Of a stretch of DNA of 64,000 nt, positions 31,351 to 63,410 are shown piece after piece. The first letter of the stretch is position 1. Every line of letters starts with the position of its first letter. The notes below the pieces were generated by a model that did not search any database, was not told the origin of the DNA, and worked only from the letters and a program-made list of their open reading frames with translations. The stretch is from Octopus vulgaris. Its lineage: Eukaryota. Location of the stretch: positions 17,670,001 through 17,734,000 of the forward strand of contig OX597843.1 in the NCBI GenBank assembly GCA_951406725.2. Direction: 5' to 3'. A program made the position numbers and the translations under genes.

Positions 31351-31545
31351 TAATTATAATTATAATAAAGGGTTATTTGCAACAAGTTGTTTAAACCACA
31401 TACCGAAAATATTAGAAATAGCAGCCAAATAGGTTATCATTACTATTACTACAAAAATAAGTTACCACCAACAACAGTATTTGTAACTCGTATATGGTAA
31501 AAAGAAGGAAGACAACGAAATCACAGTCTATATATATACATATAT

Positions 31546-61370: not shown

Positions 61371-62486
61371 GTTTGGGAAAAAATGGTTTGACAGGAGAGG
61401 TAAGAAGAAGGGGAGATAATGAAGTATTGCTGACCCTGAACGAAGGTTCGCGGGCTGAAGTGTGAGTGTGGTTTGGGACTAGTGGCTTTGACGTGTTGAT
61501 GTGTACGTGTGTGTGTGCGTCTGTAATGTGTGGGTGTATGGATGATTGTGTGTGATAGACAGGCGGTCCTGGGTGAGCGGTTAGAAGCTTGCTCCTCATC
61601 CACATGGTTTGGAGGTTCAATCCTGCTGCGCGGCACCTTGGGTGACTTTCTTTTGCTGTAACCCCGGGCGGACTAAATTGTGTGAATGGATTTAGTTTGA
61701 GGGAAACTGGAAGAAGCTTATGCATATATATTACACGTGCGTTTGTGTGTGTGTTGTGCGACCTTGTATTGTGTTTGTCTCTACAAACGCTTGACGACCG
61801 GTGTTGGGTTGTTTAGATCGACGTGAAATAGCGGTTCGGCGAAAGTGACCGATAGAATAAGTACCTGAACGCATTCCAATGAACTGAAAGAATATAATTG
61901 TAGAAGGTATGATGGTAGTCTCTCGTAGACCAAGGAAGTCGGTTCTTCAACTTCTTGCCGAATGGCTGTGAGGTAAGAAGCTTGCTTCTCAACCAAATGC
62001 TTCTGGGTTCGGTCCCACTGAATACCTCTATCTGATCAAAGTCTTGTGAGTTGATTTGATATATATGCTTTTGTCTTTCTGCCCGTGTTTGTCCCCCCAC
62101 CACTGCTTGACAACCTGTGTTAGTGTGTTTACGTCTCCGTAACACAGCAGTTCTGTAAAATAGATCGATAGAATAAGTACAAGGTTAAAAAAAGAATGTA
62201 ATGGGTTCGATACATTCAACTAAAAGTTTTTCAAGGCGTTGCTCCAGCATGGCTGCAGTTTAATGACTGACACAAGTCAAAGATAGAAACTATCAAATAT
62301 AACGAAACCGTAATCTCGTCCTCCGAAGAACCATTTTGTCTGCCACGCATTCTTGAAGAATGCGAAAAGCTATTTCTCTATTGGAATATCTCTGTACAAA
62401 TACAAGTTCACAGATATCTGTATGTGTGTGTGTGTGTGTGTGCGTATACATATTTATATTTATATATATAAATATATATATATATA

Positions 62487-63013
62487 GTAATAACAAAAGG
62501 GTGAAATTAATTAATTACGAAGTAATCATTAATTTCACCAAGTAGAATTCAGCATGTAAAGGACCAATTCATGGTAAGTTAAGTAATACTAAATAATTAG
62601 GGATCAGCAAACGATTTGCGTCACCACATACTGAAGTTTAGAAATAGCAGTCAAATTCTTGGCTATTCTTTCTACTTTAAAGGGAGATCCCAGAGAAACT
62701 GAAGCACTCAAAAGCAAACCACGAAGGTAGAAGGGAAAAAAAGACGAAAATCATTCTATAATAAGTTGCCTACGGACGCGCGTTTCGGAATTAAGTCAGA
62801 ATAGAGCACAAATAATAAATAATTATACCTTACCTGACTATTTTCCTCATCAGCGTAGGATTCTTCAACTATAAATAATCGTGTCTCAATCATTAATAAT
62901 TGTGTATTGGGATCTCCCTTTAAAGTAGAAAGAATATCCAAGAATTTGACTGCTATTTCTAAACTTCAGTATGTGGTGACGCAAATCGTTTGCTGATCCC
63001 TAATTATTTAGTA
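62487..63013 (-). mobile_element. Fold-back pLTR-like element enclosing a canonical HHR
   Basis: Arms of about 106 bp at 62587-62692 / 62908-63013 with the HHR in the spacer; related fragment at about 31360-31530. Confidence 0.8.
62769..62859 (-). ncRNA. Type I hammerhead ribozyme, canonical core, GUC cleavage site
   Basis: CCTACG-CTGATGA-GGAA..AGTCAG(AT-rich loop)CTGACT..TTCC-GAAAC-GCGC-GTC-CGTAGG; 6-bp stem I; palindromic stem III ACGCGCGT. Confidence 0.92.
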
Positions 63014-63016
63014 TAT

Positions 63017-63399
63017 ACTAGCAGTATCGCCCGGCGTTGCTAGGGTTTGTAAGAGAAATAACTATATAAGCATTTTTAGAGAGTTATAGCCAAAAAATAG
63101 CAAAAAAATGCATTAAAAATGGAAAAAAAATTATGGTAATTTTTTTTAATGATCGTTGACTCATCGTAGACATTTTTAGAGAGTTACTTCCCTTATATAA
63201 TAGCGAAAAAATGCATTAAAATGGAAAAAAATGATGGTAAATTTTTTTAAAGATCGTAGACTCATCGTAGACGCGCGCTAATACCCAGAAGGGCTCGATA
63301 TAAATCACGACTATAAGATACCCGGTTTTGGTTAAACTGCACCGCAAAATGTGGGAGTAGTTAGGAATCTAAATCGTAGGAGACAGACACACAACTTGA

Positions 63400-63410
<11 letters not shown>
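63017..63410 (-). mobile_element. Non-autonomous Helitron-like element
   Basis: 5' TATATAAAAGTCAAGTTGTGTGTCTG..; 3' CCC..GCAACGC-CGGG hairpin then CTAG-T; internal duplication of about 100 bp. Confidence 0.65.

Follow-up and report, generated by a model that had tools for sequence, protein, structure and literature searches.

An inverted-arm hammerhead locus in Octopus vulgaris: one truncated copy of a probable non-autonomous Penelope-like repeat

The locus studied here lies in a window of 64,000 nucleotides, the whole stretch of contig OX597843.1 that was analysed. We believe, with a probability of roughly 0.88, that it represents a single 5'-truncated copy of a hammerhead repeat of about 600 bp that is abundant and has no ORF. 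The repeat is likely a non-autonomous Penelope-like element (PLE; non-LTR retrozyme), which the RT/endonuclease of a partner likely inserted at a TA microsatellite. The two arms mirror each other, likely as an ordinary by-product of Penelope-type insertion and not because the locus is a purpose-built hairpin ribozyme. The original prediction, which described a young hammerhead insertion enclosed by inverted arms, overlooked both the membership of the locus in a repeat family and its PLE architecture.

Results

The features of the insertion are collected in Table 1. Position 62487, which had been given as the start, is the 3' end of the element. The near-identical inverted arms, predicted to be 106 bp long, are real; they span 62586-62692 and 62908-63014, measure 107 nt with 1 mismatch, and are 215 nt apart. 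A second copy of the family is present in the window at 31363-31457 on the minus strand; it is old and short, with about 75% identity, and ends at site 1 beside TA. The 385-bp repeat at 63016-63400, which we take to be Helitron/HINE-like by its termini, is very abundant and is also found at loci L015 and L385, where it lies within the TA flank of related elements.

Table 1. Parts and neighbours of the hammerhead insertion, in window coordinates
Feature	Position	Strand	Description
Main arm, 5'-truncated copy of the unit of about 600 bp	62487-62907	minus	About -133 to +288, counted from the predicted cut; 3' end at site 2, then TA-rich tract
Tail of about 100 nt between two fixed 3' ends	62487-62585	minus	On one arm only
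Type I hammerhead	62769-62859	minus	Stem I of 6 bp; CUGAUGA core; long stem II; stem III of 2 bp, its loop palindromic; GUC triplet; cut predicted at 62775/62774
Inverted second copy, more strongly 5'-truncated	62908-63014	plus	About +83 to +189; joined head-to-head to main arm; outer end is 3' site 1
TA-rich microsatellite, usual target of the family	62450-62486		Read in the sequence; in 174/187 arms TA lies no more than 3 nt from the 3' end
Separate 385-bp repeat adjoining the inverted arm, outside the element	63016-63400	plus	39 other copies scored, 95-97% identity; four correctly oriented flanks are not the element

On the minus strand of the window, stem I pairs CCTACG with CGTAGG and is followed by CUGAUGA, stem II consists of a G-C closing pair and a long extension with GAAAC after it, and the palindrome ACGCGCGT contains stem III, with the GUC triplet present. 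CUGANGA, GAAA and NUH are joined by stems I-III and the open end lies in stem I, which is the type I hammerhead architecture. The Rfam model Hammerhead_1 (RF00163) aligned to 62859-62769 with 24 bits (E 0.005), and all core positions and the GAAACGCGCGUC segment were matched. A scan of the whole window at the gathering threshold returned 0 hammerheads because 24 bits is less than the gathering score of 34 bits; the model scores the 58-nt stem II as an insert. The stems, the core and the Rfam alignment bear out the canonical GUC hammerhead with a palindromic stem III that had been proposed for this strand, and we obtained the same predicted cleavage position.

The 121-nt ribozyme region folds with a z-score of -2.7 and the whole 534-nt element with a z-score of -28.6. 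The active monomer fold of the window copy is predicted to cost 3.2 kcal/mol, the predicted probability of stem I in the full window RNA is about 0.1 with or without the inverted arm, and the predicted ribozyme fold is unchanged when that arm is taken out. By these models the ribozyme of the window copy would be a poor cutter alone. There is no second ribozyme at the locus and about 175 nt of the unit are missing, so that both poor cutting alone and no unit-length RNA would be expected of this copy. Within stem II lies a splice-donor-like GTAAG (62835-62831, minus strand) that is kept in 22 of 24 aligned copies; introns overlapping the ribozyme can occur in PLEs.

The family was sought in a genome of 2.8 Gb in 227 contigs, in which its size and tandem unit can be read directly. 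The exact hammerhead pattern gave 402 matches and a 3' motif 2,721, each with 0 matches for the reversed control. Copies longer than the window copy run about 175 nt further upstream and then repeat their own 3' end, so the unit is a tandem monomer. Its period is 599-600 bp in subfamily A, to which the window copy belongs, 582-584 bp in subfamily B and 592-601 bp in subfamily C, and tandem arrays hold up to 5 motif copies in a row. Tandem units that each carry a type I hammerhead occur at the level of the family (L024, L025, L076, L178), the window copy having one ribozyme. The unit has no coding capacity, the longest ATG ORF being 38-46 aa in the two monomers tested, and as circles two monomers fold far better than their shuffles (z -7.6 and -4.9).

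A CCCT motif, usually ACCCT, lies 10-20 nt upstream of both fixed 3' ends across the subfamilies (in the window at about 62517-62487 and 62605-62586, minus strand) and is a candidate RT start signal. An older sister family (L067 2322-2578 and L359-L386) has in common the TTGACTGCTATTTC and CCCTAA motifs, a tail of about 100 nt and the inverted layout; by eye, a motif resembling a type I hammerhead, with AUC as its triplet, can be made out in it, and no ORF was found in 28 of its loci with the common 3' motif. Further unrelated hammerhead-like motifs, one of them an inverted pair, were seen in L038 near 45, in L039 near 208 and 455, and in L017 near oriented position 877, which suggests that the genome holds several ribozyme-bearing repeat families.

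The ribozyme stems are conserved and covary between copies, as is seen directly in a set of 23 distinct aligned copies: stem I was paired in 100% and core stem II in 97.8%, with two-sided changes at one and two pairs, respectively, counts that include changes inherited among related copies. Distal stem II was looser (78.6% paired in the same copies). Alignment A2 leaves out locus L006. The variants of stem III all pair with themselves (-13.3, -9.8 and -8.8 kcal/mol). A self-complementary stem III is expected of hammerheads that cut as dimers (Cervera 2014, PMC4209133; here and below, published work is cited from the parts of each source available to us), and the palindromic stem III of the family would, by its predicted pairing, be as expected of such ribozymes.

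The two fixed 3' ends and the TA targets are likewise a matter of direct observation. Arms were chosen by a motif 16-17 nt after the cut, and of the 193 obtained 6 were dropped as duplicate or edge-cut. The 3' end lay at site 1 (about +196) in 117 of the remaining 187 and at site 2 (about +300) in 52, so that 169 ended at one of two positions about 100 nt apart, and 18 ended elsewhere. TA followed within 3 nt of the 3' end in 174/187 arms, in keeping with an AT-rich/(TA)n target.

Locus architecture was read in 222 loci, which remained when 58 overlapping ones had been excluded by hand from 280 (L071-L350). A head-to-head inverted, 5'-truncated partner was present in 108 and no inverted arm in 114, a fraction that is not a genome estimate because ribozyme-bearing copies are over-represented in the sample and 13 of its loci, tandem or inverted, were picked by hand. 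In 83 of the 108 inverted loci one arm ended at each site, in 0 both ended at the same site, and 25 had an atypical end; this one-of-each pairing is seen directly in the loci, and the long and short arms of the window copy obey it. Arm lengths vary freely, and either arm may be the longer. The positions of the two 5' ends of one insertion bear no relation to each other (+6 goes with -471, for example), and several tandem units may be present in either arm; in 103/222 loci the main arm wraps into the tail of the previous unit with no ORF between, the longest arm being 2,569 nt of tandem units.

Among the 108 inverted loci of this ribozyme-enriched sample, 43 have the whole ribozyme in the loop, 20 carry it in both arms, 7 have it partly paired and 38 lack it. 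Its placement varies with truncation, and its loop position therefore is incidental, reflecting where two cDNAs stopped. The suggestion that a transcript would be a long hairpin with the ribozyme in its loop holds as far as the predicted folding of a read-through RNA of this copy goes.

The 5' ends of 18/187 arms fell at +1 to +12, a stop rate of 0.0085/nt compared with 0.002-0.003 just upstream of the cut. We considered whether this pile-up might be a fossil of cleavage. In an independent 57-arm sample the rate further downstream (+13 to +99) was similar, at 0.005-0.010/nt, so the excess is not separable from a drop-off that is generally higher early in copying, or from a stop at a structure. 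Some 90% of arms continue past the cut site, which fits uncut or circular templates. None of the assembled contigs from runs that are not on record as RNA spans the window locus, and such contigs cannot show start, strand or circle.

Coding partners were sought by a GIY-YIG scan of the genome, which gave 148 matches; 30 loci and 10 longer stretches were read. No 3' sequence common to the hammerhead family and the GIY-YIG loci was found in the 29 loci compared (best z 3.3), Rfam found no hammerhead in 8 PLE loci, and no RT/GIY-YIG ORF lay inside the unit or in common upstream of it in 222 loci, so that an autonomous PLE is not indicated there. By eye, two Octopus Naiad 3' ends, from the part of the supplement of PMC8557442 available, are unlike those of the hammerhead family. 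The genome does contain intact PLEs with RT plus GIY-YIG at the C terminus, in a 781-aa frame with many copies and (TA)n ends. This PLE has its own 3' ends about 45 nt apart, unlike the tail of about 100 nt of the family, and by its zinc-finger motif it appears Neptune-like, going by the description in PMC8557442. It occurs at L061 2245-4587 and at many other loci, is young, and has an extra upstream ORF of about 350-480 aa and direct pLTRs; it also carries, about 105 nt from the end, a minimal motif that resembles a hammerhead and has a U3-A8 core. Searches with two PLE proteins (tblastn) near copies of the family gave scattered matches, and the ones inspected were located downstream or on the opposite strand.

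The window insertion had been thought young. Its two arms indeed differ at only 1/107, and within insertions whose two arms aligned cleanly the arms are 95-100% identical. However, the closest relative of the window copy is only 95% identical (among the best 40 scored of 2,260 candidates from a DNA search), whereas copies of subfamily B are 99.7-100% identical between loci. On these identities, the family was active very recently and the window copy belongs to an older wave. Retained CpG, which had been taken as a sign of youth, is uninformative, since the observed/expected CpG ratio of the element (0.94) matches the background of the window as a whole (0.98).

Discussion

We propose the following model for the origin of the insertions. 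Tandem source copies would be transcribed, and adjacent hammerheads would pair via their palindromic stem III and cut the RNA to unit length, possibly with circularisation. A PLE protein would then nick both strands of the target and prime cDNA synthesis from two internal sites separated by about 100 nt. Finally, two independently truncated cDNAs would be joined head-to-head, giving the inverted arms.

Many parts of this architecture are known from endonuclease-positive PLEs. Craig 2021 (PMC8557442) described PLEs with partial tandems and an adjacent inverted 5'-truncated copy, with a 30-40-bp tail that is often at one end only, and Naiads that target (TA)n; a tail on one of the inverted pLTRs was noted by Arkhipova 2013 (PMC3846280). 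In vitro, the PAc protein cuts and extends both target strands, and two internal RT start sites define the tail (Frangione 2024, PMC11167929). Like such insertions (see also PMC4209133), the octopus family has a hammerhead upstream of two fixed 3' ends, a tail on one arm, head-to-head inversion, partial tandems and an AT-rich/(TA)n target. Unlike them, the octopus unit has no RT/GIY-YIG ORF and its tail is about 100 nt long, and its hammerhead is of the canonical type, whereas most metazoan PLEs have the minimal motif.

Metazoan non-LTR retrozymes are made up of tandem units that lack ORFs and contain a single type I hammerhead apiece (Cervera & de la Pena 2020, PMC7229834), and a recent preprint argues that animal retrozymes are non-autonomous PLE derivatives, with families in 35 genomes, no mollusc being named in the part available, and units of 51-972 bp (Li, Clavereau & Pollet 2026, 10.64898/2026.07.22.740005). 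The length of the octopus unit falls within that range. Like the published retrozymes, it has a 2-bp stem III with a tetraloop, low GC and a strongly folded monomer. In contrast to them, the octopus family, as seen in DNA, consists mostly of truncated copies that are dispersed and of short tandems, and it shows inverted 5' copies, a (TA)n target and a very long stem II.

Given that the architecture is the same as that of autonomous PLE insertions, and that intact RT and GIY-YIG PLEs ending in (TA)n exist in the genome, the stretch might instead be the truncated 3' end (pLTR) of an autonomous PLE. We regard this as improbable: nearly half of the main arms wrap into the tail of the previous unit with no ORF, the longest as a tandem of 2,569 nt; in the 114 non-inverted loci, what the 5' junctions had in common resembled SINE/TA repeats or further family sequence, with no common ORF; and the PLE-protein matches were scattered, those examined being downstream or on the opposite strand. 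Outside the 222-locus sample there could be an autonomous parent that is rare and has these ends. Still less credible, to the point of being largely refuted by the variable arms and ribozyme placement, is a purpose-built hairpin with the ribozyme in its loop, be it an element whose terminal inverted repeats are MITE-like or a hairpin RNA that is regulated. The window copy does fold as a 107-bp stem of this kind, a layout that recurs in 43/108 inverted loci, but arm lengths vary freely with either arm longer, 114/222 loci have no inverted arm, and 58/108 either carry the ribozyme in both arms or lack it.

The origin of the second arm is a separate matter that leaves the family assignment unchanged. 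Fold-back self-priming of a single cDNA or antisense template, as proposed in PMC3846280, would also account for a head-to-head junction and for near-identical arms. We nevertheless think it rather unlikely that this took the place of two primings, as the 5' ends of an insertion are unrelated in position, several tandem units are possible per arm, and PAc cuts and extends both strands in vitro (PMC11167929).

To return to the preferred reading, a non-autonomous PLE copied into TA tracts, our search for octopus hammerhead and Penelope literature (Repbase/Dfam and subscription journals lay outside it) gave only Craig 2021, and for this reason the family may be undescribed. It is a new family of an already known kind, non-LTR retrozymes or non-autonomous PLEs, and only the strict one-of-each rule and the tail of about 100 nt go beyond the published descriptions in the parts available to us. 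In the rule, the octopus insertions (83:0) differ from PAc in vitro, where start-site use did not differ between the strands (PMC11167929). A bolder proposal, which we advance tentatively and hold to be possible but not probable, is that the family is a ribozyme replicon, protein-free and still young, and that its insertions are a record of how the PLE reaction proceeds in vivo: a single RNP would use a different fixed RNA site to prime each of the target strands, mostly copying circular or uncut RNA into multimers, with a minority of cDNAs running off at the cut.

The window locus itself is ordinary. The family is of some value for the question of what hammerheads do in the mobilisation of PLEs and retrozymes, PAc ribozyme mutants still inserting in vitro, where ribozyme cleavage was not required (PMC11167929). 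Being short, with young copies that are nearly identical, strict one-of-each ends and multimers, it offers a simple substrate for work on two-site priming and circular templates.
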